The translations under genes and the position numbers were made by a program. This document shows, piece after piece, positions 20,101 to 43,452 of a DNA stretch of 64,000 nt. Numbering within the stretch: position 1 is the stretch's first letter; every line of letters starts with the position of its first letter. The notes beneath the pieces are model-generated. The model searched no databases. It was not told the origin of the DNA and worked only from the letters and a program-made list of their open reading frames with translations. The stretch is from Giardia intestinalis (taxonomy: Eukaryota), in assembly GCA_000002435.2 (NCBI GenBank), contig CM018793.1. One strand, written 5' to 3'.

Positions 20101-23100
20101 GGCCTCAAGGCGGCGGATGGCCTCGTCGCCGCCCTGCGCCTGCTGTGCCTTGGCGCGGAACTTCTCGGCGGCATCGGCGAGGGCCTCTGTGCCTGCTGCT
20201 GCGTGTGCCTCGAGCTCGGCGATTTTGGCGCGGGCGTCGGCAAGCCTTTCTTCGGCGGCCTTGGCCTGAGCCTCCAGCTCTGCAGCGCGCTCTGCAAGCG
20301 CCTCTGCGTCGCGAGCACGCACGGCATCTTCGGCCGCCTGCTCGCGGAGGCGCGCCAGCTCCTCGGAGAGATCCTCGAGCTGGGCCGCCTTGAGCTGGGC
20401 GTCTTCCTGGTGGGCGGCGGCCTGCTCGCGCGCTTCACGGAGCGCCGCTGCGTTCTCGGCTGCGTCGCGGCGGAGGGCTGCAAGCTCCTGCTGAAGCTGC
20501 TGCGCGGCGTCGCCGTGGTCGGCAATCCCGTCGATCGCCTCTGCAAGCGCCTTCTCGCGGGCCTCGAGCTTGTCTGTAAGGGCGGCGCTTTCGTCTTCGA
20601 GGCGACGGATCCTGTTCTGGGCGTCCTCGAGCGCGCCGTCTGTAGCGCTTCTTTTGAGGTCCATGGCAGTAAGCTGGCGCTCGCGGTCCCGGACCTCCTC
20701 TGCTCGCGCTTCGGCCTTGCGGCCCAGCGATTGAAGGGCACTCTCCAGCTCGTCGACGCGGTTGCGCAGCCGTGCCGTCTTGGCGGCGCTTTCTTCTGCT
20801 TGCTCTGCCCTTGCGGCTGCCTCGTCCTCCAGGGCTTGAATCCGCGTTCTGGCGGCCTCGACACTGGCCGTTGTTCGGGAAAGTTCGTCACTCAGCTGGC
20901 CGATCTCCTTGTCCTTTGCATCAAGGGTGGCATGGAGGTCATCTCGCTCGGCCTCGAGTTGAACGATGCGCTCTGCAGCGCCTTCATTGTCTTGCGCACG
21001 TAGTTGTTGAAGCTCGCGCTCGCGGTTGTCTGCCTCCTCGCGAAGTCTTTCTGCCTCATTCCGGAGCATGTCAAGCGCCACTGTCTTCTCATCGAGCTCG
21101 CCCTGCTTTTGCTCCAGCTCCTTCCTAAGAGCGCTTGCTTCAATAGTATAAATTTGAGTATCTGACATCTGTGATTTAAGCTCACTAACAAAATCTTCCA
21201 ACCGTTGAGTACGTTCTTTGGAATCGTTCGCTCTTTCCTCTGATGCCTTATTTAATTTTTTCAGGTCTGCTACCTCTGTCAAAAGTTCCTTTTTGTCGCG
21301 CTCGAGTTGAGCCACGCGATCAACAAGATCTTGAGATTCCTCTGCCTCTAGTTTCATAGTGGCAATTTCATCCATTTGTGCATTTAAGTTATCCAATAGC
21401 TCCGCCATCTGAATTTCATTGGCTTGTGCCTCATGGGTTCGTCTGGCAAATTCCATCTGGGACGCGACAAGCGTCTGCTGGAGTTGGATGATCTCCTCTT
21501 GGTGCTGGCGAATCGCTTGTCGAAGATCTGGGATGGTATCCTGCATCTCGCGGATCTGGGCCTTGGCGTCGTTCATGGCTCCGAGGTTTTCGGTCAGGGC
21601 AGAGACCCTGTCCTCAGCGGCGGCGAGCTGGGCGCGGGCGGTCTGCAGGGCGTCCTGGGCCTCCGCCAGCTGAGCCGCGAGGGCATCTCGCTCGGCCTCC
21701 AGATTCTTGTGCTCGGCCTCCAGAGCTGCGGCCTCGTCGAGGGCCTTATCGAGGGCCGCACGGGCCTCATCGCGCTCGGCCTCTGCAGCACGCACGTCGG
21801 CCTCAAGGCGGCGGATGGCCTCGTCGCCGCCCTGCGCCTGCTGTGCCTTGGCGCGGAACTTCTCGGCGGCATCGGCGAGGGCCTCTGTGCCTGCTGCTGC
21901 GTGTGCCTCGAGCTCGGCGATTTTGGCGCGGGCGTCGGCAAGCCTTTCTTCGGCGGCCTTGGCCTGAGCCTCCAGCTCTGCAGCGCGCTCTGCAAGCGCC
22001 TCTGCGTCGCGAGCACGCACGGCATCTTCGGCCGCCTGCTCGCGGAGGCGCGCCAGCTCCTCGGAGAGATCCTCGAGCTGGGCCGCCTTGAGCTGGGCGT
22101 CTTCCTGGTGGGCGGCGGCCTGCTCGCGCGCTTCACGGAGCGCCGCTGCGTTCTCGGCTGCGTCGCGGCGGAGGGCTGCAAGCTCCTGCTGAAGCTGCTG
22201 CGCGGCGTCGCCGTGGTCGGCAATCCCGTCGATCGCCTCTGCAAGCGCCTTCTCGCGGGCCTCGAGCTTGTCTGTAAGGGCGGCGCTTTCGTCTTCGAGG
22301 CGACGGATCCTGTTCTGGGCGTCCTCGAGCGCGCCGTCTGTAGCGCTTCTTTTGAGGTCCATGGCAGTAAGCTGGCGCTCGCGGTCCCGGACCTCCTCTG
22401 CTCGCGCTTCGGCCTTGCGGCCCAGCGATTGAAGGGCACTCTCCAGCTCGTCGACGCGGTTGCGCAGCCGTGCCGTCTTGGCGGCGCTTTCTTCTGCTTG
22501 CTCTGCCCTTGCGGCTGCCTCGTCCTCCAGGGCTTGAATCCGCGTTCTGGCGGCCTCGACACTGGCCGTTGTTCGGGAAAGTTCGTCACTCAGCTGGCCG
22601 ATCTCCTTGTCCTTTGCATCAAGGGTGGCATGGAGGTCATCTCGCTCGGCCTCGAGTTGAACGATGCGCTCTGCAGCGCCTTCATTGTCTTGCGCACGTA
22701 GTTGTTGAAGCTCGCGCTCGCGGTTGTCTGCCTCCTCGCGAAGTCTTTCTGCCTCATTCCGGAGCATGTCAAGCGCCACTGTCTTCTCATCGAGCTCGCC
22801 CTGCTTTTGCTCCAGCTCCTTCCTAAGAGCGCTTGCTTCAATAGTATAAATTTGAGTATCTGACATCTGTGATTTAAGCTCACTAACAAAATCTTCCAAC
22901 CGTTGAGTACGTTCTTTGGAATCGTTCGCTCTTTCCTCTGATGCCTTATTTAATTTTTTCAGGTCTGCTACCTCTGTCAAAAGTTCCTTTTTGTCGCGCT
23001 CGAGTTGAGCCACGCGATCAACAAGATCTTGAGATTCCTCTGCCTCTAGTTTCATAGTGGCAATTTCATCCATTTGTGCATTTAAGTTATCCAATAGCTC

Positions 23101-26100
23101 CGCCATCTGAATTTCATTGGCTTGTGCCTCATGGGTTCGTCTGGCAAATTCCATCTGGGACGCGACAAGCGTCTGCTGGAGTTGGATGATCTCCTCTTGG
23201 TGCTGGCGAATCGCTTGTCGAAGATCTGGGATGGTATCCTGCATCTCGCGGATCTGGGCCTTGGCGTCGTTCATGGCTCCGAGGTTTTCGGTCAGGGCAG
23301 AGACCCTGTCCTCAGCGGCGGCGAGCTGGGCGCGGGCGGTCTGCAGGGCGTCCTGGGCCTCCGCCAGCTGAGCCGCGAGGGCATCTCGCTCGGCCTCCAG
23401 ATTCTTGTGCTCGGCCTCCAGAGCTGCGGCCTCGTCGAGGGCCTTATCGAGGGCCGCACGGGCCTCATCGCGCTCGGCCTCTGCAGCACGCACGTCGGCC
23501 TCAAGGCGGCGGATGGCCTCGTCGCCGCCCTGCGCCTGCTGTGCCTTGGCGCGGAACTTCTCGGCGGCATCGGCGAGGGCCTCTGTGCCTGCTGCTGCGT
23601 GTGCCTCGAGCTCGGCGATTTTGGCGCGGGCGTCGGCAAGCCTTTCTTCGGCGGCCTTGGCCTGAGCCTCCAGCTCTGCAGCGCGCTCTGCAAGCGCCTC
23701 TGCGTCGCGAGCACGCACGGCATCTTCGGCCGCCTGCTCGCGGAGGCGCGCCAGCTCCTCGGAGAGATCCTCGAGCTGGGCCGCCTTGAGCTGGGCGTCT
23801 TCCTGGTGGGCGGCGGCCTGCTCGCGCGCTTCACGGAGCGCCGCTGCGTTCTCGGCTGCGTCGCGGCGGAGGGCTGCAAGCTCCTGCTGAAGCTGCTGCG
23901 CGGCGTCGCCGTGGTCGGCAATCCCGTCGATCGCCTCTGCAAGCGCCTTCTCGCGGGCCTCGAGCTTGTCTGTAAGGGCGGCGCTTTCGTCTTCGAGGCG
24001 ACGGATCCTGTTCTGGGCGTCCTCGAGCGCGCCGTCTGTAGCGCTTCTTTTGAGGTCCATGGCAGTAAGCTGGCGCTCGCGGTCCCGGACCTCCTCTGCT
24101 CGCGCTTCGGCCTTGCGGCCCAGCGATTGAAGGGCACTCTCCAGCTCGTCGACGCGGTTGCGCAGCCGTGCCGTCTTGGCGGCGCTTTCTTCTGCTTGCT
24201 CTGCCCTTGCGGCTGCCTCGTCCTCCAGGGCTTGAATCCGCGTTCTGGCGGCCTCGACACTGGCCGTTGTTCGGGAAAGTTCGTCACTCAGCTGGCCGAT
24301 CTCCTTGTCCTTTGCATCAAGGGTGGCATGGAGGTCATCTCGCTCGGCCTCGAGTTGAACGATGCGCTCTGCAGCGCCTTCATTGTCTTGCGCACGTAGT
24401 TGTTGAAGCTCGCGCTCGCGGTTGTCTGCCTCCTCGCGAAGTCTTTCTGCCTCATTCCGGAGCATGTCAAGCGCCACTGTCTTCTCATCGAGCTCGCCCT
24501 GCTTTTGCTCCAGCTCCTTCCTAAGAGCGCTTGCTTCAATAGTATAAATTTGAGTATCTGACATCTGTGATTTAAGCTCACTAACAAAATCTTCCAACCG
24601 TTGAGTACGTTCTTTGGAATCGTTCGCTCTTTCCTCTGATGCCTTATTTAATTTTTTCAGGTCTGCTACCTCTGTCAAAAGTTCCTTTTTGTCGCGCTCG
24701 AGTTGAGCCACGCGATCAACAAGATCTTGAGATTCCTCTGCCTCTAGTTTCATAGTGGCAATTTCATCCATTTGTGCATTTAAGTTATCCAATAGCTCCG
24801 CCATCTGAATTTCATTGGCTTGTGCCTCATGGGTTCGTCTGGCAAATTCCATCTGGGACGCGACAAGCGTCTGCTGGAGTTGGATGATCTCCTCTTGGTG
24901 CTGGCGAATCGCTTGTCGAAGATCTGGGATGGTATCCTGCATCTCGCGGATCTGGGCCTTGGCGTCGTTCATGGCTCCGAGGTTTTCGGTCAGGGCAGAG
25001 ACCCTGTCCTCAGCGGCGGCGAGCTGGGCGCGGGCGGTCTGCAGGGCGTCCTGGGCCTCCGCCAGCTGAGCCGCGAGGGCATCTCGCTCGGCCTCCAGAT
25101 TCTTGTGCTCGGCCTCCAGAGCTGCGGCCTCGTCGAGGGCCTTATCGAGGGCCGCACGGGCCTCATCGCGCTCGGCCTCTGCAGCACGCACGTCGGCCTC
25201 AAGGCGGCGGATGGCCTCGTCGCCGCCCTGCGCCTGCTGTGCCTTGGCGCGGAACTTCTCGGCGGCATCGGCGAGGGCCTCTGTGCCTGCTGCTGCGTGT
25301 GCCTCGAGCTCGGCGATTTTGGCGCGGGCGTCGGCAAGCCTTTCTTCGGCGGCCTTGGCCTGAGCCTCCAGCTCTGCAGCGCGCTCTGCAAGCGCCTCTG
25401 CGTCGCGAGCACGCACGGCATCTTCGGCCGCCTGCTCGCGGAGGCGCGCCAGCTCCTCGGAGAGATCCTCGAGCTGGGCCGCCTTGAGCTGGGCGTCTTC
25501 CTGGTGGGCGGCGGCCTGCTCGCGCGCTTCACGGAGCGCCGCTGCGTTCTCGGCTGCGTCGCGGCGGAGGGCTGCAAGCTCCTGCTGAAGCTGCTGCGCG
25601 GCGTCGCCGTGGTCGGCAATCCCGTCGATCGCCTCTGCAAGCGCCTTCTCGCGGGCCTCGAGCTTGTCTGTAAGGGCGGCGCTTTCGTCTTCGAGGCGAC
25701 GGATCCTGTTCTGGGCGTCCTCGAGCGCGCCGTCTGTAGCGCTTCTTTTGAGGTCCATGGCAGTAAGCTGGCGCTCGCGGTCCCGGACCTCCTCTGCTCG
25801 CGCTTCGGCCTTGCGGCCCAGCGATTGAAGGGCACTCTCCAGCTCGTCGACGCGGTTGCGCAGCCGTGCCGTCTTGGCGGCGCTTTCTTCTGCTTGCTCT
25901 GCCCTTGCGGCTGCCTCGTCCTCCAGGGCTTGAATCCGCGTTCTGGCGGCCTCGACACTGGCCGTTGTTCGGGAAAGTTCGTCACTCAGCTGGCCGATCT
26001 CCTTGTCCTTTGCATCAAGGGTGGCATGGAGGTCATCTCGCTCGGCCTCGAGTTGAACGATGCGCTCTGCAGCGCCTTCATTGTCTTGCGCACGTAGTTG

Positions 26101-29100
26101 TTGAAGCTCGCGCTCGCGGTTGTCTGCCTCCTCGCGAAGTCTTTCTGCCTCATTCCGGAGCATGTCAAGCGCCACTGTCTTCTCATCGAGCTCGCCCTGC
26201 TTTTGCTCCAGCTCCTTCCTAAGAGTTCCAAGCTCCATTTCCTGCATCCCTGCATCTATCTGCTTGCTCTTGAGCTCTGACAAATAATCTTCGAGCATTT
26301 GGGTGCGCTCCTTCGAATCGGAAGCCTGCTGCTCGAGATGAGAAAGTGCATCAATCTTGTCGTGTGCTTCCTGGAGCTCGCGACGAAGCTCAGCGATTTC
26401 GTCTGCCTGACGCTGTGCTAAAGTGTCTTTATCTCTGGCTGCTTCTTCTAAATAGTGGACCTGGGCCTTGGCGTCGTTCATGGCTCCGAGGTTTTCGGTC
26501 AGGGCAGAGACCCTGTCCTCAGCGGCGGCGAGCTGGGCGCGGGCGGTCTGCAGGGCGTCCTGGGCCTCCGCCAGCTGAGCCGCGAGGGCATCTCGCTCGG
26601 CCTCCAGATTCTTGTGCTCGGCCTCCAGAGCTGCGGCCTCGTCGAGGGCCTTATCGAGGGCCGCACGGGCCTCATCGCGCTCGGCCTCTGCAGCACGCAC
26701 GTCGGCCTCAAGGCGGCGGATGGCCTCGTCGCCGCCCTGCGCCTGCTGTGCCTTGGCGCGGAACTTCTCGGCGGCATCGGCGAGGGCCTCTGTGCCTGCT
26801 GCTGCGTGTGCCTCGAGCTCGGCGATTTTGGCGCGGGCGTCGGCAAGCCTTTCTTCGGCGGCCTTGGCCTGAGCCTCCAGCTCTGCAGCGCGCTCTGCAA
26901 GCGCCTCTGCGTCGCGAGCACGCACGGCATCTTCGGCCGCCTGCTCGCGGAGGCGCGCCAGCTCCTCGGAGAGATCCTCGAGCTGGGCCGCCTTGAGCTG
27001 GGCGTCTTCCTGGTGGGCGGCGGCCTGCTCGCGCGCTTCACGGAGCGCCGCTGCGTTCTCGGCTGCGTCGCGGCGGAGGGCTGCAAGCTCCTGCTGAAGC
27101 TGCTGCGCGGCGTCGCCGTGGTCGGCAATCCCGTCGATCGCCTCTGCAAGCGCCTTCTCGCGGGCCTCGAGCTTGTCTGTAAGGGCGGCGCTTTCGTCTT
27201 CGAGGCGACGGATCCTGTTCTGGGCGTCCTCGAGCGCGCCGTCTGTAGCGCTTCTTTTGAGGTCCATGGCAGTAAGCTGGCGCTCGCGGTCCCGGACCTC
27301 CTCTGCTCGCGCTTCGGCCTTGCGGCCCAGCGATTGAAGGGCACTCTCCAGCTCGTCGACGCGGTTGCGCAGCCGTGCCGTCTTGGCGGCGCTTTCTTCT
27401 GCTTGCTCTGCCCTTGCGGCTGCCTCGTCCTCCAGGGCTTGAATCCGCGTTCTGGCGGCCTCGACACTGGCCGTTGTTCGGGAAAGTTCGTCACTCAGCT
27501 GGCCGATCTCCTTGTCCTTTGCATCAAGGGTGGCATGGAGGTCATCTCGCTCGGCCTCGAGTTGAACGATGCGCTCTGCAGCGCCTTCATTGTCTTGCGC
27601 ACGTAGTTGTTGAAGCTCGCGCTCGCGGTTGTCTGCCTCCTCGCGAAGTCTTTCTGCCTCATTCCGGAGCATGTCAAGCGCCACTGTCTTCTCATCGAGC
27701 TCGCCCTGCTTTTGCTCCAGCTCCTTCCTAAGAGCGCTTGCTTCAATAGTATAAATTTGAGTATCTGACATCTGTGATTTAAGCTCACTAACAAAATCTT
27801 CCAACCGTTGAGTACGTTCTTTGGAATCGTTCGCTCTTTCCTCTGATGCCTTATTTAATTTTTTCAGGTCTGCTACCTCTGTCAAAAGTTCCTTTTTGTC
27901 GCGCTCGAGTTGAGCCACGCGATCAACAAGATCTTGAGATTCCTCTGCCTCTAGTTTCATAGTGGCAATTTCATCCATTTGTGCATTTAAGTTATCCAAT
28001 AGCTCCGCCATCTGAATTTCATTGGCTTGTGCCTCATGGGTTCGTCTGGCAAATTCCATCTGGGACGCGACAAGCGTCTGCTGGAGTTGGATGATCTCCT
28101 CTTGGTGCTGGCGAATCGCTTGTCGAAGATCTGGGATGGTATCCTGCATCTCGCGGATCTGGGCCTTGGCGTCGTTCATGGCTCCGAGGTTTTCGGTCAG
28201 GGCAGAGACCCTGTCCTCAGCGGCGGCGAGCTGGGCGCGGGCGGTCTGCAGGGCGTCCTGGGCCTCCGCCAGCTGAGCCGCGAGGGCATCTCGCTCGGCC
28301 TCCAGATTCTTGTGCTCGGCCTCCAGAGCTGCGGCCTCGTCGAGGGCCTTATCGAGGGCCGCACGGGCCTCATCGCGCTCGGCCTCTGCAGCACGCACGT
28401 CGGCCTCAAGGCGGCGGATGGCCTCGTCGCCGCCCTGCGCCTGCTGTGCCTTGGCGCGGAACTTCTCGGCGGCATCGGCGAGGGCCTCTGTGCCTGCTGC
28501 TGCGTGTGCCTCGAGCTCGGCGATTTTGGCGCGGGCGTCGGCAAGCCTTTCTTCGGCGGCCTTGGCCTGAGCCTCCAGCTCTGCAGCGCGCTCTGCAAGC
28601 GCCTCTGCGTCGCGAGCACGCACGGCATCTTCGGCCGCCTGCTCGCGGAGGCGCGCCAGCTCCTCGGAGAGATCCTCGAGCTGGGCCGCCTTGAGCTGGG
28701 CGTCTTCCTGGTGGGCGGCGGCCTGCTCGCGCGCTTCACGGAGCGCCGCTGCGTTCTCGGCTGCGTCGCGGCGGAGGGCTGCAAGCTCCTGCTGAAGCTG
28801 CTGCGCGGCGTCGCCGTGGTCGGCAATCCCGTCGATCGCCTCTGCAAGCGCCTTCTCGCGGGCCTCGAGCTTGTCTGTAAGGGCGGCGCTTTCGTCTTCG
28901 AGGCGACGGATCCTGTTCTGGGCGTCCTCGAGCGCGCCGTCTGTAGCGCTTCTTTTGAGGTCCATGGCAGTAAGCTGGCGCTCGCGGTCCCGGACCTCCT
29001 CTGCTCGCGCTTCGGCCTTGCGGCCCAGCGATTGAAGGGCACTCTCCAGCTCGTCGACGCGGTTGCGCAGCCGTGCCGTCTTGGCGGCGCTTTCTTCTGC

Positions 29101-32100
29101 TTGCTCTGCCCTTGCGGCTGCCTCGTCCTCCAGGGCTTGAATCCGCGTTCTGGCGGCCTCGACACTGGCCGTTGTTCGGGAAAGTTCGTCACTCAGCTGG
29201 CCGATCTCCTTGTCCTTTGCATCAAGGGTGGCATGGAGGTCATCTCGCTCGGCCTCGAGTTGAACGATGCGCTCTGCAGCGCCTTCATTGTCTTGCGCAC
29301 GTAGTTGTTGAAGCTCGCGCTCGCGGTTGTCTGCCTCCTCGCGAAGTCTTTCTGCCTCATTCCGGAGCATGTCAAGCGCCACTGTCTTCTCATCGAGCTC
29401 GCCCTGCTTTTGCTCCAGCTCCTTCCTAAGAGCGCTTGCTTCAATAGTATAAATTTGAGTATCTGACATCTGTGATTTAAGCTCACTAACAAAATCTTCC
29501 AACCGTTGAGTACGTTCTTTGGAATCGTTCGCTCTTTCCTCTGATGCCTTATTTAATTTTTTCAGGTCTGCTACCTCTGTCAAAAGTTCCTTTTTGTCGC
29601 GCTCGAGTTGAGCCACGCGATCAACAAGATCTTGAGATTCCTCTGCCTCTAGTTTCATAGTGGCAATTTCATCCATTTGTGCATTTAAGTTATCCAATAG
29701 CTCCGCCATCTGAATTTCATTGGCTTGTGCCTCATGGGTTCGTCTGGCAAATTCCATCTGGGACGCGACAAGCGTCTGCTGGAGTTGGATGATCTCCTCT
29801 TGGTGCTGGCGAATCGCTTGTCGAAGATCTGGGATGGTATCCTGCATCTCGCGGATCTGGGCCTTGGCGTCGTTCATGGCTCCGAGGTTTTCGGTCAGGG
29901 CAGAGACCCTGTCCTCAGCGGCGGCGAGCTGGGCGCGGGCGGTCTGCAGGGCGTCCTGGGCCTCCGCCAGCTGAGCCGCGAGGGCATCTCGCTCGGCCTC
30001 CAGATTCTTGTGCTCGGCCTCCAGAGCTGCGGCCTCGTCGAGGGCCTTATCGAGGGCCGCACGGGCCTCATCGCGCTCGGCCTCTGCAGCACGCACGTCG
30101 GCCTCAAGGCGGCGGATGGCCTCGTCGCCGCCCTGCGCCTGCTGTGCCTTGGCGCGGAACTTCTCGGCGGCATCGGCGAGGGCCTCTGTGCCTGCTGCTG
30201 CGTGTGCCTCGAGCTCGGCGATTTTGGCGCGGGCGTCGGCAAGCCTTTCTTCGGCGGCCTTGGCCTGAGCCTCCAGCTCTGCAGCGCGCTCTGCAAGCGC
30301 CTCTGCGTCGCGAGCACGCACGGCATCTTCGGCCGCCTGCTCGCGGAGGCGCGCCAGCTCCTCGGAGAGATCCTCGAGCTGGGCCGCCTTGAGCTGGGCG
30401 TCTTCCTGGTGGGCGGCGGCCTGCTCGCGCGCTTCACGGAGCGCCGCTGCGTTCTCGGCTGCGTCGCGGCGGAGGGCTGCAAGCTCCTGCTGAAGCTGCT
30501 GCGCGGCGTCGCCGTGGTCGGCAATCCCGTCGATCGCCTCTGCAAGCGCCTTCTCGCGGGCCTCGAGCTTGTCTGTAAGGGCGGCGCTTTCGTCTTCGAG
30601 GCGACGGATCCTGTTCTGGGCGTCCTCGAGCGCGCCGTCTGTAGCGCTTCTTTTGAGGTCCATGGCAGTAAGCTGGCGCTCGCGGTCCCGGACCTCCTCT
30701 GCTCGCGCTTCGGCCTTGCGGCCCAGCGATTGAAGGGCACTCTCCAGCTCGTCGACGCGGTTGCGCAGCCGTGCCGTCTTGGCGGCGCTTTCTTCTGCTT
30801 GCTCTGCCCTTGCGGCTGCCTCGTCCTCCAGGGCTTGAATCCGCGTTCTGGCGGCCTCGACACTGGCCGTTGTTCGGGAAAGTTCGTCACTCAGCTGGCC
30901 GATCTCCTTGTCCTTTGCATCAAGGGTGGCATGGAGGTCATCTCGCTCGGCCTCGAGTTGAACGATGCGCTCTGCAGCGCCTTCATTGTCTTGCGCACGT
31001 AGTTGTTGAAGCTCGCGCTCGCGGTTGTCTGCCTCCTCGCGAAGTCTTTCTGCCTCATTCCGGAGCATGTCAAGCGCCACTGTCTTCTCATCGAGCTCGC
31101 CCTGCTTTTGCTCCAGCTCCTTCCTAAGAGTTCCAAGCTCCATTTCCTGCATCCCTGCATCTATCTGCTTGCTCTTGAGCTCTGACAAATAATCTTCGAG
31201 CATTTGGGTGCGCTCCTTCGAATCGGAAGCCTGCTGCTCGAGATGAGAAAGTGCATCAATCTTGTCGTGTGCTTCCTGGAGCTCGCGACGAAGCTCAGCG
31301 ATTTCGTCTGCCTGACGCTGTGCTAAAGTGTCTTTATCTCTGGCTGCTTCTTCTAAATAGTGGACCTGGGCCTTGGCGTCGTTCATGGCTCCGAGGTTTT
31401 CGGTCAGGGCAGAGACCCTGTCCTCAGCGGCGGCGAGCTGGGCGCGGGCGGTCTGCAGGGCGTCCTGGGCCTCCGCCAGCTGAGCCGCGAGGGCATCTCG
31501 CTCGGCCTCCAGATTCTTGTGCTCGGCCTCCAGAGCTGCGGCCTCGTCGAGGGCCTTATCGAGGGCCGCACGGGCCTCATCGCGCTCGGCCTCTGCAGCA
31601 CGCACGTCGGCCTCAAGGCGGCGGATGGCCTCGTCGCCGCCCTGCGCCTGCTGTGCCTTGGCGCGGAACTTCTCGGCGGCATCGGCGAGGGCCTCTGTGC
31701 CTGCTGCTGCGTGTGCCTCGAGCTCGGCGATTTTGGCGCGGGCGTCGGCAAGCCTTTCTTCGGCGGCCTTGGCCTGAGCCTCCAGCTCTGCAGCGCGCTC
31801 TGCAAGCGCCTCTGCGTCGCGAGCACGCACGGCATCTTCGGCCGCCTGCTCGCGGAGGCGCGCCAGCTCCTCGGAGAGATCCTCGAGCTGGGCCGCCTTG
31901 AGCTGGGCGTCTTCCTGGTGGGCGGCGGCCTGCTCGCGCGCTTCACGGAGCGCCGCTGCGTTCTCGGCTGCGTCGCGGCGGAGGGCTGCAAGCTCCTGCT
32001 GAAGCTGCTGCGCGGCGTCGCCGTGGTCGGCAATCCCGTCGATCGCCTCTGCAAGCGCCTTCTCGCGGGCCTCGAGCTTGTCTGTAAGGGCGGCGCTTTC

Positions 32101-36769: not shown

Positions 36770-38983
36770 CTATTTTTTGCCCGCTTTGCTCCCACTGCGT
36801 GCCCTCACATTGGCGTAGAATTGGCTCCCAGTCTTTCCATGATCGTACCCGCCCCTGTTGCGTTTGGGAGTCTTCTGCTTTTTATAGGCTCCGGAGACCA
36901 TGATGAGGTCGTCATCACCGACAACCCCAGACAAGTATGCCCTTGTGAGCTCGCGATTCTTAGTCCTCAATAGCTTAACAGCCCTCTTTATTCCCTCGCT
37001 TGTCCCGTGGTGCTTCTTGGGCTTTGTCTTGGTATTGACAACTTCCTTTGCTTGAGCAGCTGCTACCCGCTCACCTACTGTCATTGACTTTTCAGCAGTA
37101 GTACTAGATAGCTTCTTCTTCTTAGATGCGGCTTGAGCCGGCGTGTCTCCTTGTCCAAAGACACTGTCCCAATCATCTGCCAGTCCTGTCTCTCCATCAG
37201 GGGCGGCGTCGCTCAGGTTAACCTCGTTGCTCTCAGAGTTGTTATCTATCTCAGCAACATCTCGGACGGGGCGTGATGTACCGTGGACCTCCTCCTCTTC
37301 AGACTCGGAAACCTCCTCCAATCGGTTATTGATCGCAAATGCATCGTGGACAATTTCCTCCTCATTGAAGTTGAGAGTCTTAGGAAGGAGCATTAGGTCC
37401 TGCGTATTTACGTAGTTTATGAGCTCCACATCTGTCTTGTTTCCCCACGCCTTACGCTCCTTTCCAATCGTGGCATTGTACTCATCAACCTCTTCTCGCG
37501 TGTAGGGTATAACAAAGTGTGGTATCCGTCCTCTGATAAAGTCCTCAAGGATTCTCCTTGCCACAGTTCGTGTATCTGGCTCTCCTCCCTTTAGAAGTCG
37601 GCCCTGTTTGAAAGCAAGGATTTCCAGTAGCTTGTCTACGTCTCCGTCCCACCGCTCATCCACGTTAGAAGCAGGGCGAATATTATATGTCTTGTTGATG
37701 TACTCCGGCTTCACACGCTGAAGTATGCAAGGAATAAACTTCTCCGGGAATTCCAAATACTCTGCGCGTAGAACCCCCGAAAGGACGAGGTGTATGTCTG
37801 TAGTATTTATATAGTTAAAATCGTCGATAGCTGAGCGCGCAGCGGTCGCTCGCCCTTGCGAAAGGTCAGTTCCTGTGTCATAAAGATTGCGCAGCTCATT
37901 CGGAAGCTCCAGTTGATTAGTAGCCCAAACGACACCCGGGGCATCAATGAGATTTATTCGCTTGGTCAAAGATACATATTGCCAGACCTTCGTCTCGCCT
38001 GGAATTGGCGCAGTCTTACAACTATGCTTCCCTAGCAAAGTATTTATAACAGATGACTTCCCAGTGTTCGGGTATCCGCAGAAGCCAACGGATATCTGTG
38101 CTTTGTCCCTATGTAGCTGAGCAAACTGGCGTAGAATAGAAAATACCTCATTGCGGCCGAACGGATGCTCAATGGATGCGTGGAAGGCAATTGTAGGTCT
38201 AAGCTTTGATAGTTTCGATATCCACGATGCAGTAACCCACGTTGGGACCAAATCGCACTTATTAAGCAAGTATATCATGTGCCTGTGCTCGTTCTCTGGT
38301 GTCATCATGTACCTCTCTAAAAATCTGGAGCGCGTGCCTTCTGGGTCCCGCGCATCCAGGACGTAGATGATGACATCTGAACTATCAATTACTTTGTATA
38401 TTTCAGAATAAATCCTATTTGTCTGACCTCTAATTAGTCGCGGATCGTACTCTGTCCTAAAGGCCGTCTTACGGAGCTCCCGTTGGCTCACCGTATTACC
38501 GTCTTTATCAATATCGTAGTTAGTTACTTCACTGTGTGCCGTGGACAGTATTTCTTCCGGGTTGAACGTGGTCAGTTTGCTCCTTTTCCGCTGAGCCTTT
38601 GGCCCAAAAGTGAGATGATAGGGCTCTATCTCCTGGATTCTAACAGTCTCCTGCTTTACATCATGTATAAGGGCGGTCGGTAGACGCTTGTTACGCACCA
38701 GAAATGTGTTTGGATTGTGTTCTTCGTTGGCAATCACCTCTCTCATCTTTGCAAGATCCTGCTGCCCAACGACACGTGTGTTTCCAAACCAATTCCTGGA
38801 TGGTTCAATCCGCCCGTCGAGCTGGGCAGTAGGGTTGTGATACTGTTCGTGGAGAATCTTACCTTTCTCGTCGCGCACAGGTCGAGTGTTATACATCTTC
38901 AGCCGCTTGATTGTCCGATTTGTGCGGATATTGCCCTTCTTGGCGGTCTTGCGGCCTACTATGGATGAAGCCGAGGAAACCAT
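36770..38983 (-). CDS. NOG2: Nucleolar GTP-binding protein 2 (NOG2/GNL2 family), a circularly permuted GTPase of ribosome biogenesis.
   Basis: ATG confirmed at 38981-38983. Conserved blocks include NWFGNTRVVGQ, FGPKAQRKR, YKVIDSSDVIIYVLDARDP and LNKCDLVPTW (G4, lying before G1). Further blocks are GFCGYPNTGKSS (G1), APIPGETKVWQY, DAPG and KQGRLLKGGEPD. Confidence 0.9.
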   Translation of the reverse strand: MVSSASSIVGRKTAKKGNIRTNRTIKRLKMYNTRPVRDEKGKILHEQYHNPTAQLDGRIEPSRNWFGNTRVVGQQDLAKMREVIANEEHNPNTFLVRNKRLPTALIHDVKQETVRIQEIEPYHLTFGPKAQRKRSKLTTFNPEEILSTAHSEVTNYDIDKDGNTVSQRELRKTAFRTEYDPRLIRGQTNRIYSEIYKVIDSSDVIIYVLDARDPEGTRSRFLERYMMTPENEHRHMIYLLNKCDLVPTWVTASWISKLSKLRPTIAFHASIEHPFGRNEVFSILRQFAQLHRDKAQISVGFCGYPNTGKSSVINTLLGKHSCKTAPIPGETKVWQYVSLTKRINLIDAPGVVWATNQLELPNELRNLYDTGTDLSQGRATAARSAIDDFNYINTTDIHLVLSGVLRAEYLEFPEKFIPCILQRVKPEYINKTYNIRPASNVDERWDGDVDKLLEILAFKQGRLLKGGEPDTRTVARRILEDFIRGRIPHFVIPYTREEVDEYNATIGKERKAWGNKTDVELINYVNTQDLMLLPKTLNFNEEEIVHDAFAINNRLEEVSESEEEEVHGTSRPVRDVAEIDNNSESNEVNLSDAAPDGETGLADDWDSVFGQGDTPAQAASKKKKLSSTTAEKSMTVGERVAAAQAKEVVNTKTKPKKHHGTSEGIKRAVKLLRTKNRELTRAYLSGVVGDDDLIMVSGAYKKQKTPKRNRGGYDHGKTGSQFYANVRARSGSKAGKK

Positions 38984-39155
38984 GGAGCCTAAAGAATCTT
39001 TTTACATCGAATCTTATTGCATTCAATCTTCTGTCCGAAGTTATTGCCAATTTAAGTGTAATTTCCATAGTATGTATTTTCAGATATGTAGATTAGCCTT
39101 ACTGTAAAAATAAATATGAACAGTTAATTGTGTTAAAGATCCAGTAAAAAACTCA
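38984..39155. promoter_or_regulatory. A 172-bp AT-rich divergent intergenic region between NOG2 (minus) and the Cys-rich membrane protein gene (plus).
   Basis: It lies between two confirmed ATG starts on opposite strands. AT-rich tracts (tgttaaagatccagtaaaaaactca) lie directly before the ATG at 39156. Confidence 0.35.
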
Positions 39156-40778
39156 ATGATACTTGCTGTGGCTTCTCTTCTTACAGCGAGTTTAACTAAC
39201 AACATCACGATTGGTGTCCGCGAAGGAAAATATGACGAGTCAACCCCAATACAGTTTGAAGAATTTGTCAATCTCAACTTCTCAACCAATGCACTTTACG
39301 TTCCTTTTCAGTTTAAGCACACAGACTATGCGTACATGCAGGAAGCGCTCCCGATCATACTTAGCCGAGGACGCATCCCCCTATTAATATGGGACATGAG
39401 CAACTCCAAGGAACTAAACAGTGTTTACGAAAGCATCACGGATGGAAGCCAAGATGCTTATTTGAACTCCTTTGCTGATGCAGTTCTGGGTTCATTAGTC
39501 AAGGACACCGTTGTGTATGTGGCCCTGGGAAACGATATCAATACTGAAGACAGCTACTGGCGTAAGAATCCAGAGCTGTATATGCAAACAGTAGACTATG
39601 TCGCAAACAAGCTTCGCATCCGTACAAGGCTTGCGCAAGCTGCTCATGCAACAGAGCACTACCCTACGTATGAGTTCGTATTGCCTCTGGCCGTGAACTA
39701 TAAGCTTTTGCCCTCTAGCTTCGTTCCTAATGCCACGGCATATAACTATTCGCTTGTCACTGTTAGCAACTTTGGAGAGCCGGAGTGGAGCGACGCGTTG
39801 GATCTTATGATCAAGGTAGACAGTATGCTGCAGCAGAGTGAAGACGTCTTGGCCACAAAAGTCTTCATTATAGCGCGCACTGTAAGTGACAACGATACAG
39901 CAAAGAAGGCCGATTGGATAAGCGACCTAGTGGACGCGACCGTTGAGCGATGCCTGCGTATCCCTGTCCTCATCCTAGATAACGTAGAAACAGGAAAGGA
40001 TACAGGTTACTTCATGTCGGTGAATGGCGACAAGGTTGTAGGCCAGAATTCTAATGGAAAGGACCTGTTCTCTTATTGTCGCCTTCCGGACATTTTAGCT
40101 CGTGACGGAATCCACTCCTGGGTACCAGAAGAAGTAGATTCTCCTGTAGATCCACCGGTGGAGCCTAGTGATTGCAAAGCCGGTGAGCAACTAACTGATG
40201 ACGGAGTTTGCGAACCCTGCCCTGCCGGAACTGCATCCAAAGCGGGGTCAGTATGTACTCCATGTACACCAGGAACATATCAACCCAACTCAGGGTCTGG
40301 TACTTGCATCAATTGCTCTGCTGGTCAGTATCAGGATAGCTCAGGGAAGACATCATGCTTAGCTTGTTCCGTGGGCAGTTACCAAGGACTCCAAGGCGCT
40401 GAGACCTGCATCCTATGTCCACACGGACAATATCAACCAAGTCAGGGCCAAGTTGCCTGCATTCGATGTCCCGGTGAGACGACCACAGACAAGGTAGGAG
40501 CCACCTCAAGGGAGTCTTGTGTTTGTGCAGGAACCGTGGGATTTAATGAGACTTCTGGTAAGTGTGAGGTTTGCCCCAGTGGTCAGTACAAACCGCTGCT
40601 TAGTAACATATGTACAGATTGTCCAGTTCCTGATTGCAAGTGTGACAACGGAGGAACCTTCAATACTCTTACAGGACAGTGCGAAAACAACACATCCAGC
40701 AGCTTCACTAGGACTTCAGCAGCAATCTTTGTAGCAACCATTGGTGCCATTTGTGCCATTGCAGCCATTTATAGCTAG
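39156..40778 (+). CDS. Cys-rich type I membrane protein, 540 aa. It has a signal peptide, a ~330-aa Cys-poor N-terminal domain, seven CxxCxxG.YQ repeats, a C-terminal TM helix, and almost no cytoplasmic tail.
   Basis: ATG at 39156. The N-terminus, MILAVASLLTASL, is hydrophobic. The repeats are CEPCPAGT, CTPCTPGTYQ, CINCSAGQYQ, CLACSVGSYQ, CILCPHGQYQ, CIRCPGET and CEVCPSGQYK. These resemble TNFR / ephrin-receptor-like repeats. The C-terminus is AAIFVATIGAICAIAAIYS. Confidence 0.7.
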   Translation: MILAVASLLTASLTNNITIGVREGKYDESTPIQFEEFVNLNFSTNALYVPFQFKHTDYAYMQEALPIILSRGRIPLLIWDMSNSKELNSVYESITDGSQDAYLNSFADAVLGSLVKDTVVYVALGNDINTEDSYWRKNPELYMQTVDYVANKLRIRTRLAQAAHATEHYPTYEFVLPLAVNYKLLPSSFVPNATAYNYSLVTVSNFGEPEWSDALDLMIKVDSMLQQSEDVLATKVFIIARTVSDNDTAKKADWISDLVDATVERCLRIPVLILDNVETGKDTGYFMSVNGDKVVGQNSNGKDLFSYCRLPDILARDGIHSWVPEEVDSPVDPPVEPSDCKAGEQLTDDGVCEPCPAGTASKAGSVCTPCTPGTYQPNSGSGTCINCSAGQYQDSSGKTSCLACSVGSYQGLQGAETCILCPHGQYQPSQGQVACIRCPGETTTDKVGATSRESCVCAGTVGFNETSGKCEVCPSGQYKPLLSNICTDCPVPDCKCDNGGTFNTLTGQCENNTSSSFTRTSAAIFVATIGAICAIAAIYS

Positions 40779-40791
40779 GTATTTACAAATC

Positions 40792-43452
40792 TTACAAGTT
40801 GTTTGAGTGGACATGTCCTTGTATAACCTCAATAATTCGTTCGGAAAGATTGACATCTTTGTAGACAGAGCCATCAGTTGCATAGTAAATGGCCGAGCGA
40901 CCACGCTGATCTAAAATATGCGCTTCCAAGGGTGAAAGTTCCTGAACAATACGCAAATACCCTAGCTGCGCTGCCATCATCAAAGCTGTGTGCCCTTTGG
41001 ACGTCTGTGCCCCTGCTTCATAAGGTAGCAATACTCGAACAATATCTAGTTGGTCTAGTTCGGCAGCCACCATGAGTGCGGTGCGTCCATTCTGGTCGCG
41101 AATGTTGGAGAGCCGGGGAGCGAGTAAATATACAGCGGCTAGATTGTTCATGGGTACAAATCCATGAAGTGTGGCTCCACGGTTGCATTGGTCATGGAGT
41201 ACATTGGATACTCGCACCAACTTTGATCGCAAATACTCAGACAAGTGATAATTTCTGGCCTGAATGGTCACTTCGAGAACCTCGAGCCAGATTCCATCGG
41301 CGTCTTCATGTAGAATGTCATGCCGCAGACACGCTTTAGAAAATAACTCGCGAAGCAAGGTCTCTTCACATGGAATAATAGAATTCAGTTTTCGCTGTGT
41401 CACAAAGCTAACAATATACGGGTTGTCAGCCGACTCCTTGCTTTCCTCGATATCCCTAAGAACTTTATCGCGTTCACAAAGAGCTCGCTGATATAAAATG
41501 CATGCCACTCTCTCCATATTGCCAACCCCCTCTTTCCGATGGTCACTGATAACATCGCAATCGGCTAGAGGAATTTGTGCAAGGCATTGATTTAGCTCAG
41601 CAATGGCCTTATCCTTTTCTAGTAGTTCTTCTGTTAGCCGAGCTATTAGTGTCTGGGCCTCAGCAAGTGAACCTTCAAGTTCTGCTCCTGGTTGTGATTG
41701 TGATTGTGGTTGTGGTTGTGGTTGCAATGCTTGGATCTCTTCAGTGCGAGCATTTGATGGCTCAGCTTGACGCTCGAGTTGATGAAAGTTGGCCACACTG
41801 AACTCAGAAGGGTATAGAACGGAAGCGCCTGGTTGTTGAAGGGCTTCTTGCAAGAGAATGCTCAGGCGTGTGGGGTCCACCACTCGTAAATGCACACCAG
41901 GACCAACACACTCCACCTGCACGCCGTGGTCAGCTAACTGTTCTATCAGTTTGGTCAGGCTACAGGCATCATCGTCTGCTGCAGCCTTTTTGCCTTCCTC
42001 TTCTTCTAAATAGCTGTATATGGTCATTGTATCGATCATTCTTGTTTCTACATCATTGTGAGCTGCTAAAGGGATTAAGTCTGAGGTGCAACATTCAATG
42101 GAAGGTTCTTGAACATCCTGAGGATGTGTAGGGTCAGTCTGCTTAGTATCGCTCTCTGCAGCTGTTTGTCGTAGTAAAGTAATACTTTGTTTGAGCTGCT
42201 GCAACTCCGTGTTCAGGGCGTCCCGCTCATTCTGAACGACTGAAAGCCTATCGCGTATCGCTTCTGCTTCCGCTATGGCATCAAGACATGATCTTCTTAA
42301 TGTTTGTATTTCTGTACTAGCAATCTCCGTCAGTACGGAGACCTTAGCAAAGTTTTGCGAGATTATGGAAGACTCTAGGCCCAATGTCAGCAAATTAGAC
42401 TTTAGTATTGAATACTCTGAAAGCATCTGCTTGCAAATTGATTCAGCGTCGGCAGAAGCAGCAAGATTATCCTTAATCTGCGCCTCCTCAGACATATTTG
42501 GAGTCTCCACAGCGTTTGAAGTTAGTGTTAAGGATATAGGATGTACCATCTGGCCGGATGCTTGAGTAGCTGCGGTCAATTCTGTTGTGAGCCGTGCTAT
42601 TTCTTCTTCCTTTTCACACAGTTGTTTTTCCTGGGTCTTCAGCTGTTCAGTAAGGCTGCGGAGCTTTGTGTCCATAGTTTCATAGCTCTGTTTCTCGTTA
42701 CTCAGTATACTAGAAATAATGTCCTGATATTTTCTAGATTGAGATTGCTCTTTCAAGAGCTCTGCTTGAAGTGCTTTAACGGCCTCCTGTAGCATCGATT
42801 TGGTAGCCCGCGCCATCCACTCCTCCGTTAGCGTATGCGTACCCATACCAGAAGTTGCCGTAGCAATGGATTCACCGGTCTTTTTGTCCAAAGCAGAAGC
42901 AGATCCTGTTTGTACTTGTTCGGATTGATCTGCTAAGGACTCCGGCTGAATGGCTCTTGCAGACTGCTTCCGGTGTGCAAGCATCTCTACTATACGATTG
43001 TACTGAGCTGAGGTGGGTGAATGCACCGACTGAAGTACCTTCTCAACGTGTTCAGAACCAAGCTCCTCATCCCGCAGAAGAAGTTCCACTATGGAATATG
43101 CACTGGCTTCAATGGCTCTTTCCATCATGTCGACTTTCGATACTATCTGGGCAGATAGCAAATGTGGACACAGCAGGGCAAAGATATCAGCCTCATCGTT
43201 CCGCAGACATGCTTTCATGCCTTGAGTAAGTGAAGTCAGTATGGCAGTTCGCTTCTTCTCGTCACAGGCGGTCCGAAGAGTGTTGGCATAAAGATTGCAG
43301 ATTGCCGCTATGGCTTCTTTATTCGCATATAGCACTGCAATAGTTAAACTAGAATTGGTACCCTCATCCACTGCCAGAAAGTACTCCTCAAGGTGAGCCA
43401 TCACGTAGGTATTGTCTGCCCGCTTCAGCGCCGAGAACCATTGGTCACTCAT
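40792..43452 (-). CDS. Coiled-coil protein with C-terminal ankyrin repeats, 886 aa.
   Basis: ATG at 43450-43452. The C-terminal motifs are GRTALMVAAELDQLDIVRVLL and GHTALMMAAQLGYLRIVQEL. The central region is heptad-rich, with a Q/P-rich stretch, PQPQPQSQSQP. Confidence 0.75.
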   Translation of the reverse strand: MSDQWFSALKRADNTYVMAHLEEYFLAVDEGTNSSLTIAVLYANKEAIAAICNLYANTLRTACDEKKRTAILTSLTQGMKACLRNDEADIFALLCPHLLSAQIVSKVDMMERAIEASAYSIVELLLRDEELGSEHVEKVLQSVHSPTSAQYNRIVEMLAHRKQSARAIQPESLADQSEQVQTGSASALDKKTGESIATATSGMGTHTLTEEWMARATKSMLQEAVKALQAELLKEQSQSRKYQDIISSILSNEKQSYETMDTKLRSLTEQLKTQEKQLCEKEEEIARLTTELTAATQASGQMVHPISLTLTSNAVETPNMSEEAQIKDNLAASADAESICKQMLSEYSILKSNLLTLGLESSIISQNFAKVSVLTEIASTEIQTLRRSCLDAIAEAEAIRDRLSVVQNERDALNTELQQLKQSITLLRQTAAESDTKQTDPTHPQDVQEPSIECCTSDLIPLAAHNDVETRMIDTMTIYSYLEEEEGKKAAADDDACSLTKLIEQLADHGVQVECVGPGVHLRVVDPTRLSILLQEALQQPGASVLYPSEFSVANFHQLERQAEPSNARTEEIQALQPQPQPQSQSQPGAELEGSLAEAQTLIARLTEELLEKDKAIAELNQCLAQIPLADCDVISDHRKEGVGNMERVACILYQRALCERDKVLRDIEESKESADNPYIVSFVTQRKLNSIIPCEETLLRELFSKACLRHDILHEDADGIWLEVLEVTIQARNYHLSEYLRSKLVRVSNVLHDQCNRGATLHGFVPMNNLAAVYLLAPRLSNIRDQNGRTALMVAAELDQLDIVRVLLPYEAGAQTSKGHTALMMAAQLGYLRIVQELSPLEAHILDQRGRSAIYYATDGSVYKDVNLSERIIEVIQGHVHSNNL

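Follow-up and report, generated by a model that had tools for sequence, protein, structure and literature searches.

CEGP1 of Giardia intestinalis, an encystation-induced protein with a GH26-like barrel, a substituted catalytic centre and a cysteine-rich stalk

Several glycosidase folds have given rise to catalytically dead binding proteins. β-Klotho and α-Klotho are GH1-like type I membrane proteins of this kind, and the chitinase-like lectins, such as YKL-40, are GH18-like. In engineered glycosynthases, for example CjMan26A E320G (PDB 1ODZ), a small or non-nucleophilic residue stands in for the nucleophile, and in Leishmania GT108, derived from glycoside hydrolase (GH) family GH130, a protist has made a sugar-nucleotide transferase out of a bacterial GH fold. 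Here we describe CEGP1, a gene in a 64,000-nucleotide stretch of Giardia intestinalis DNA (contig CM018793.1, assembly GCA_000002435.2; hereafter the window), whose product carries an N-terminal domain, or head, that by profile comparison is homologous to GH26 and has lost the GH26 catalytic residues. GH26 enzymes work by double displacement; a Glu on β4 serves as acid/base and a second Glu, on β7, as nucleophile, and mutation of either abolishes activity (PMC10470212). In Giardia, CWP1 is a leucine-rich-repeat (LRR) lectin for the homopolymer of N-acetylgalactosamine (GalNAc) in β-1,3 linkage (PMC2924369).

CEGP1 differs from each of these systems. Unlike the Klothos and the chitinase-like lectins, it comes from GH26, has a single barrel and carries it on a Cys-rich stalk, and its likeness to a lectin is conjectural. 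Like the glycosynthases, it is a retaining-glycosidase scaffold with the nucleophile replaced, in Giardia by Arg and not by Gly or Ser; like the Leishmania GT108 mannosyltransferase/phosphorylases, it is a protist protein from a bacterial GH fold. It differs from the engineered enzymes in being natural and from both groups in that transfer is only a proposed activity. With CWP1 it shares induction during encystation, a probable secretory route and the presence of Cys, and the ligand proposed below is the same polymer; CWP1, however, is a soluble LRR protein incorporated into the wall, whereas CEGP1 is a predicted membrane-anchored TIM barrel unrelated to it in sequence or fold. The name comes from human SCUBE2 (also 'CEGP1'), which, like the mastigoneme protein Mst1 (PDB 8TX1), shares just the repeat region (residues 340-480). 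Unlike SCUBE2, the Giardia protein has no EGF or CUB domains, and judged by its domains the name is a repeat-driven mis-annotation as to function. The gene and its Ephrin-like repeats were already known, and a '(trans)glycosidase' label had been applied once. In the literature searched, a query for Giardia together with GH26 returned nothing relevant and no experimental study of the CEGP1 protein was found; the specific GH26 assignment, the finding that a diplomonad-wide family with a fixed head-stalk-anchor plan has systematically lost its catalytic centre, and the link to cyst-wall activities that lack a gene are new.

The gene is a single ATG-to-stop open reading frame (ORF) of 540 amino acids (aa). 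By exact-sequence look-up its translation is identical to XP_001709353.1 (UniProt A8B610, GL50803_17120), titled 'CEGP1 protein', from Giardia intestinalis WB C6. GL50803_17120 is the identifier used for CEGP1 in the supplementary tables of two expression studies (PMC4807828 and PMC5450421), where its length, 1623 nt, equals that of the ORF. Rojas-López et al. 2021 print GL50803_17210 (PMC8700996), which is probably a digit transposition, because the two tables agree on GL50803_17120 and on the length.

The relationship of the head to GH26 emerges from profile comparisons. As a single sequence, the N-terminal domain matched no Pfam family at E ≤ 10, GH26 (PF02156) included, and phmmer against PDB returned noise only. 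Each family member's head likewise gave only chance Pfam matches (E > 0.1) and missed PF02156 even at E ≤ 10. Searching PDB with a profile of six diplomonad family heads (hmmsearch) yielded one significant match, the lichenase domain CtLic26A (GH26) of Clostridium thermocellum CelH, aligned at positions 25-275 of the profile with E 1.5e-6; PDB entries 2cip, 2cit and 2bv9 were among those matched. The same profile, run against 5.8 billion proteins, retrieved a bacterial PF02156 protein (P0021), to which hhalign aligned it with E 5.7e-9 (95.9% probability). When the target was instead 38 aligned bacterial GH26 proteins, chosen to be diverse, the probability was 99.0% (E 5.5e-18, 246 columns). 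An AlphaFold2 (AF2) model of residues 1-339, built from a joint 49-sequence alignment, contains eight β/α units (pLDDT 78.9, pTM 0.81), and Foldseek placed CtLic26A at the top of its PDB matches (E 2e-12), followed by GH26 mannanases and β-1,3-xylanases. A first, full-length AF2 model from six near-identical Giardia sequences was poor in the head (pLDDT 53) and was used just for strand positions and the stalk; its strands nevertheless coincided with those of the later model in seven of eight cases, β1 being the exception. Profiles and predicted structure together support a (β/α)8 barrel homologous to GH26. A sequence-only reading of the locus had proposed a globular N-terminal domain, possibly a glycoside-hydrolase TIM barrel, displayed as an enzyme or binding domain on a Cys-rich stalk, and the GH26-like head on its Ephrin_rec_like stalk agrees with that proposal. 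It had not remarked on the missing catalytic residues, the existing 'CEGP1 protein' entry or the strong induction in encystation.

The resemblance to GH26 spans about 250 profile columns and the same (β/α)8 barrel. The closest solved structure is CtLic26A (PDB 2BV9), and the closest sequences are of Chloroflexota/actinobacterial type, annotated 'β-mannanase'. CEGP1 shares with them P..W on β3, G..D.YI, the HEMN Asn, a W following β4, the P.. before β6, the Asn of DGYN, W211 and S....K..WI after β7. It departs from GH26 in an insertion of about 20 residues after β8 that carries the invariant E278 and D282, and from the bacterial proteins in being eukaryotic, membrane-anchored and fused to a Cys-rich stalk. 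Bacteria offer a precedent for GH26-type proteins in polysaccharide assembly rather than nutrient degradation: the wps-1 cluster of Actinoplanes missouriensis, a Wzx/Wzy exopolysaccharide cluster for the sporangium matrix, includes the GH26 gene wpsE (PMC13390465).

Examination of the aligned catalytic columns indicates that the GH26 centre has been replaced. The columns are marked by two PDB mutants, 2cit (LHAANG) and the nucleophile mutant 2cip (IIAQFAS); hhalign and MAFFT agree on the mapping, and residues were counted over the 38 bacterial GH26 and 11 diplomonad sequences. The nucleophile Glu of β7, found in all 38 bacterial proteins, is R241 in CEGP1, and the diplomonads have Arg (six), Ser (one), Gly (two) or a gap (two). 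The acid/base Glu of β4, also universal in the bacterial set (38/38), is D127, with Asp in six diplomonads, Glu in one, Thr in two and Gln in two. The His that precedes it (35 of 38 bacterial sequences) is N126 and varies among N, T, S and Q in diplomonads. On β6, the Asp and the Tyr of D-G-Y-N (each 37/38) are T202 and S204 in CEGP1, with T/Q/H and S/A/L/M/V at the two diplomonad columns. Scaffold and cleft positions are retained (P75, W79, G97, D100, N129, W135, P191, N205, W211, K251, W254), and W79, D100, N129, W135, N205, W211 and K251 are singled out as cleft residues. E278 and D282 occur in 11 of 11 diplomonads, within the lineage-specific insertion, and are not conserved in bacterial GH26. 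CEGP1 is not an ordinary GH26 hydrolase, because the nucleophile, the acid/base Glu and the supporting His and Tyr are all replaced; as its sequence reads, the barrel cannot carry out canonical GH26 chemistry. With the GH fold kept, the catalytic residues substituted and the rest of the domain conserved, it has the features of a pseudo-glycosidase.

The head defines a small diplomonad family. CEGP1 appears to be single-copy, with 1:1 orthologues in the G. duodenalis assemblages and in G. muris. The assemblage orthologues, titled 'CEGP1 protein' or 'GCC2 Family Protein', are 85-99% identical; among assemblages, identity is 87-92% in the barrel versus 75-86% in the stalk, and the linker (residues 323-339) is the least conserved segment. 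A word-indexed homology search with CEGP1 found only G. duodenalis orthologues. The distant relatives came from an exhaustive phmmer search of 1.84 billion representatives, in which the N-terminal domain retrieved only six clusters: the G. duodenalis group, G. muris CEGP1 (44% identity), a protein from a Logan assembly (P0007, 30%), a second G. muris protein (23%), a second Logan protein (P0009) and Hexamita inflata proteins titled 'ephrin-receptor like'. All family members share a four-part plan of leader, head of about 330 aa, Ephrin_rec_like repeats and C-terminal hydrophobic segment, seen in the two G. muris paralogues, Hexamita inflata and the two Logan assemblies, and 18 columns are invariant across the family. 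P0007 (locus L001, 40-1545), from a 116-kb contig of Logan run SRR31929897 where a MYG1-exonuclease gene adjoins it, is the sole member with a cytoplasmic tail, of 21 residues, and the sole member with Glu at the acid/base column. A second clade, which includes G. muris and Hexamita inflata proteins, consists of P0008, P0009, P0010, P0019 and P0020. The GH26 motif YFPG[DE]SYVDW before β6 is much better kept in this clade than in CEGP1; the clade nevertheless lacks both catalytic carboxylates, with Thr/Gln and Gly/gap at the two positions.

Outside the barrel, CEGP1 is organised as leader, linker, stalk and anchor (Table 1). Cys residues are split sharply between the two halves, with two in residues 1-339 versus 23 in residues 340-540 (25 of 540 overall, or 4.6%), and all eight CxxC motifs lie within residues 352-489, in line with the Cys-poor N-terminal ~330 aa described in the sequence-only reading. 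The strings that it quoted are all present: IPLLIWDM at 74-81, YVALGNDIN at 121-129 and CKCDNGG at 494-500. Of its seven C-x2-C-x2-G-x-Y-Q repeats, the regularity stands, with a strict 17-residue period, and the number does not, as exact copies number four, starting at residues 367, 384, 401 and 418. One more copy, at 470, ends in YK, and CxxCxxG occurs six times. The suggested kinship with ephrin-receptor and TNFR-like repeats holds: the stalk matches Ephrin_rec_like (PF07699; E 5.3e-27, 93.8 bits against a cutoff of 23.1, four stretches) and TNFR_ELAPOR1_6th (PF23091; E 1.9e-10, 40.9 bits against 33.2), the Pfam repeat matches spanning residues ~340-480. Its best solved relative is Chlamydomonas mastigoneme Mst1 (E 7e-19), and the first AF2 model reaches pLDDT ~80 over residues 340-460.

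Both ends of the protein are hydrophobic. In 15-residue hydropathy windows the top segment is ~520-539 and the runner-up is residues 1-15. The leader forms a low-confidence helix (2-13) in the AF2 model, directly before strand β1, and all diplomonad family members have an equivalent; its hydropathy, position and conservation make it a presumed signal peptide. The C-terminus, AAIFVATIGAICAIAAIYS (…AICAIAAIYS*), stops one residue past the hydrophobic stretch and has no cytoplasmic tail, as the sequence-only reading had noticed in describing a terminal segment without CRGKA. By eye, the series NNTSSS-FTRTS-AAIFVATIGAICAIAAIYS resembles the anatomy of a glycosylphosphatidylinositol (GPI) signal. 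Homologue P0007 instead has its 21-residue tail after the hydrophobic segment, which points to a true transmembrane (TM) helix in that species. From hydropathy, position and conservation, the CEGP1 anchor could equally be a tail-less TM helix or a GPI-attachment signal.

CEGP1 is among the most strongly encystation-induced genes. Its transcript rises from 10.0 fragments per kilobase per million (FPKM) in trophozoites to 15.3 at 90 min, 221.8 at 7 h and 723.2 at 22 h, and stands at 119.9 in cysts (Einarsson et al. 2016, S1, PMC4807828). In mouse intestine it is 28.5-fold up in encysting foci (Pham et al. 2017, PMC5450421 Table 4), where it ranks third, below CWP2 and glucose-6-phosphate N-acetyltransferase and above UDP-glucose 4-epimerase; those authors cite PMID 24391747 for the link between CEGP1 and encystation. 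Rojas-López et al. 2021 also report induction at 7 h and speak of 'the transglycosidase CEGP1' (PMC8700996), a label that appears to reflect database superfamily annotation. The available text of the supplements of PMC3986054, PMC3877021 and PMC12472542 has no CEGP1 entry and gives no protein-level confirmation. Two cyst-wall activities are described without a gene, a glycohydrolase by which the wall is opened at excystation and the synthase of its polymer. Deproteinated β-1,3-GalNAc fibrils are broken down, with release of GalNAc, by extracts of cysts and encysting cells but not by trophozoite extracts (Chatterjee et al. 2010, PMC2924369); this GalNAc-polymer glycohydrolase had no gene in that study and still has none in a 2026 review. 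The same review treats the cyst wall synthase likewise as an activity without a gene, 'tentatively called CWS'.

We tentatively favour the view that CEGP1 is a lectin-like pseudo-glycosidase tethered to the membrane, with the GalNAc polymer of the cyst wall as its ligand, in principle analogous to the dead glycosidase-fold binders; this explanation leads its rivals but is slightly less likely than not. It would be a secretory-pathway protein, with signal peptide, barrel of about 305 residues, Pro/acid-rich linker, rigid disulfide-rich stalk and tail-less anchor, produced in bulk during encystation. The stalk would set the head at a fixed distance from the membrane; the head would take as ligand the β-1,3-GalNAc homopolymer as it forms, or a different glycan of the wall; and the bound head would tether or organise fibrils, either at the cell surface or in carrier vesicles. 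Its identity, architecture, GH26 ancestry, lost catalytic residues, conservation across diplomonads and induction in encystation are observed here; what it binds, its part as a lectin, where it resides and how it is anchored are inferences. Several points weigh against this explanation. At the acid/base position a carboxylate persists in the CEGP1 clade, as Asp in G. duodenalis and G. muris and as Glu in P0007, and beside β8 both E278 and D282 are invariant in the family; these carboxylates could mean residual or re-invented catalysis and not pure binding. The cyst-stage GalNAc-polymer glycohydrolase without a gene fits an enzyme equally well (PMC2924369). Finally, the second AF2 alignment held GH26 sequences, which leaves the fold-search results not fully independent; the GH26 homology itself stands apart from this circularity, because the sequence-profile evidence is independent of any model.

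CEGP1 might instead be the missing cyst-wall polysaccharide enzyme, a GH26 barrel that acts on β-1,3-GalNAc without an enzyme nucleophile, as glycohydrolase/transglycosylase or as synthase; taken in this broad form we consider the idea doubtful. Its narrower form, an active non-canonical glycanase or transglycosylase for the homopolymer, serving as the cyst-specific glycohydrolase or as a wall-remodelling enzyme, is the main rival, though unlikely. Catalysis would be substrate-assisted, with the C2 acetamido group of GalNAc as nucleophile and Asp127 or E278/D282 as general acid/base; an enzyme nucleophile would not be needed, because GalNAc supplies its own. GH18, GH20, GH84, GH85 and GH123 lack an enzyme nucleophile and rely on such assistance, but we know of no clan GH-A family that does. 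The acid/base-column carboxylate persists throughout the CEGP1 clade (D, D, E) despite 30-44% sequence identity, and E278 and D282 are invariant at the catalytic face, yet the would-be acetamido polariser, the residue before the carboxylate, varies (N/T/T). In the second clade (G. muris paralogue, P0009, Hexamita), Thr/Gln stands at the acid/base column, so the whole family cannot share a substrate-assisted mechanism. Arg at the nucleophile site would also put a positive charge beside the oxazolinium-like intermediate, and the β6 Tyr and Asp are lost too. In its favour, β-1,3-active GH26 enzymes (lichenase, β-1,3-xylanases) are among the closest structural matches, the expression profile of CEGP1 matches the fibril-degrading activity that lacks a gene in cysts and encysting cells and is not found in trophozoites (PMC2924369), and one paper already uses the label 'transglycosidase' (PMC8700996).

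It is rather improbable that CEGP1 is a surface receptor or adhesin whose ligand is unrelated to the wall, be it glycans of host mucin, β-glycans from the diet or from bacteria, or a protein as for β-Klotho. Induction in encystation would then reflect surface remodelling and not wall assembly. This would suit the occurrence of family members in free-living Hexamita inflata and the transcript detectable in trophozoites (FPKM 10), but the ~70-fold induction coincides with that of CWP genes and GalNAc-synthesis enzymes both in vitro and in vivo, and to our knowledge all named species with the family are cyst formers.

Very improbable is a natural 'glycosynthase', in which CEGP1 would itself be the cyst wall synthase and would transfer GalNAc from UDP-GalNAc, an α-linked activated donor, to the 3-OH of a GalNAc acceptor. 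Asp127 would act as general base, and Arg241 would stabilise the phosphate as it leaves. The nucleophile position holds Arg, Ser or Gly, and Ser and Gly are used in engineered glycosynthases, whose GH26 example, CjMan26A (PDB 1odz), is among the fold matches. Expression coincides with that of UDP-GalNAc pathway enzymes, the 2026 review still knows the synthase as no more than an activity, 'tentatively called CWS', and the Leishmania enzyme described above shows that a protist can take a bacterial GH fold to nucleotide sugars. However, this is purely chemical reasoning: nucleotide sugars are not known as substrates of any natural GH-A enzyme, CEGP1 has no recognisable nucleotide-binding element, its head would face the lumen or exterior and the donor would need import, and the second clade lacks the general-base carboxylate.

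Finally, that CEGP1 is a divergent Cys-rich surface antigen of the variant-specific surface protein (VSP) or HCMP type with a degenerate Cys-repeat N-terminus is scarcely credible: it has the CxxC motifs and C-terminal membrane anchor of such Giardia proteins, but we rejected this reading on the missing VSP domain (PF03302, no match at E ≤ 1), the absence of CRGKA at any C-terminus among CEGP1, its orthologues and paralogues, the low overall Cys content, the two-Cys N-terminal domain with its GH26-like barrel, and the single copy. VSP ectodomains are Cys-rich (~12%) throughout, and the HCMP criterion that Davids and colleagues are said to have set in 2006 calls for a Cys content of at least ~10% and numerous CxxC/CxC motifs throughout the ectodomain. 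What CEGP1 has in common with VSPs and HCMPs is the type-I-like surface plan with CxxC motifs and a C-terminal hydrophobic anchor; unlike them, it carries a large head that is poor in Cys and has an enzyme fold, and it is kept 1:1 across species, not as a variable multigene family. The view of the sequence-only reading that the protein is neither VSP-like nor a canonical HCMP therefore needs no revision, CEGP1 being well under the Cys content given for HCMPs.

Table 1. Coordinates of CEGP1 features in the window
Feature	Position	Strand	Basis or detail
CEGP1 coding sequence	39156..40778	+	540 codons + stop; ORF reading, exact-sequence look-up
Upstream intergenic region, presumed promoter	38984..39155	+	172 bp; A-rich AAAAAACTCA abuts ATG
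Hydrophobic leader, presumed cleavable signal peptide, residues 1-15 (MILAVASLLTASLT)	39156..39200	+	Second-highest hydropathy window
Putative GH26-derived (β/α)8 barrel, residues 16-322	39201..40121	+	Strands 17-22, 44-50, 74-80, 119-124, 171-179, 198-205, 235-242, 271-276 (AF2)
N126-D127-I128-N129 after β4, aligned with GH26 H-E-M-N	39531..39542	+	Asp127 for acid/base Glu, Asn126 for His
T202-V203-S204-N205, end of β6, aligned with GH26 D-G-Y-N	39759..39770	+	Asp and Tyr lost, Asn kept
Arg241, end of β7, at GH26 nucleophile Glu position	39876..39878	+	hhalign, MAFFT
N276-V-E278-T-G-K-D282 just after β8, motif N-x-E-x3-D	39981..40001	+	Invariant columns of the diplomonad profile
Acidic Pro-rich linker, residues 323-339 (VPEEVDSPVDPPVEPSD)	40122..40172	+	pLDDT <50 in both models
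Cys-rich Ephrin_rec_like / TNFR-like stalk, residues 340-510, 22 Cys	40173..40685	+	Pfam, PDB, regular expression
Four exact 17-residue CxxCxxGxYQ repeats, residues 367-427	40254-40436	+	Regular-expression counts
C-terminal anchor region, residues 511-540: small/polar NNTSSSFTRTS, hydrophobic ~522-539, final Ser	40686..40775	+	Hydropathy, predicted helix 522-539

The GC content of the CEGP1 region (~0.46-0.48) is the same as that of its flanks. Neither strand of the 172-bp upstream region carries an exact gMyb2 site (C[TA]ACAG); the region contains one generic Myb-like TAACTG at -35, a count within chance expectation. Across this spacer lies a divergent gene for a 737-aa GTPase-like protein (36770-38983, minus strand), in which NKCDL precedes GYPNTGKSS and DAPG, the order found in nucleolar GTPases of the circularly permuted (YlqF/NOG2) type. 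Downstream, a gene for an 886-aa coiled-coil/ankyrin protein (40792..43452, minus strand) converges on CEGP1, and the 3′ ends and polyadenylation signals of the two must overlap, because their stops are only 13 nt apart (40776-40794). The window also holds one giant ORF of 8035 aa (11194-35301, minus strand), with N-terminal ankyrin repeats followed by coiled coil. Its central 20 kb (12000-32000) has a GC content of 0.60-0.66 versus 0.45-0.49 in the flanks and an AT skew of about -0.35. Spurious ORFs nested within it return every ~1509 or ~1698 bp, which points to very long-period tandem repeats; TRF, whose maximum period of 500 bp is below the suspected one, found no repeats in this gene. A further very long ORF, of 3049 aa (1997-11146, minus strand), lies immediately downstream of the giant gene.

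The cyst wall is the armour of the Giardia transmission stage, and it contains a unique polymer of β-1,3-GalNAc. Among the very top encystation-induced genes, we noticed no carbohydrate-active-enzyme fold other than that of CEGP1, and the CEGP1 head, conserved in diplomonads, would face outward or into the lumen. Recognition of GH26 ancestry turns a mis-named entry into a concrete candidate for a polymer-binding tether, a remodelling enzyme, a synthase or a hydrolase, and makes the protein a possible parasite-specific target for blocking transmission. Should CEGP1 prove to be an enzyme, it would represent a new catalytic solution within clan GH-A and would supply the gene for an activity known only biochemically since 2004-2010. 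For the family, CEGP1 adds to GH26 a eukaryotic pseudo-enzyme branch, probably of bacterial derivation.

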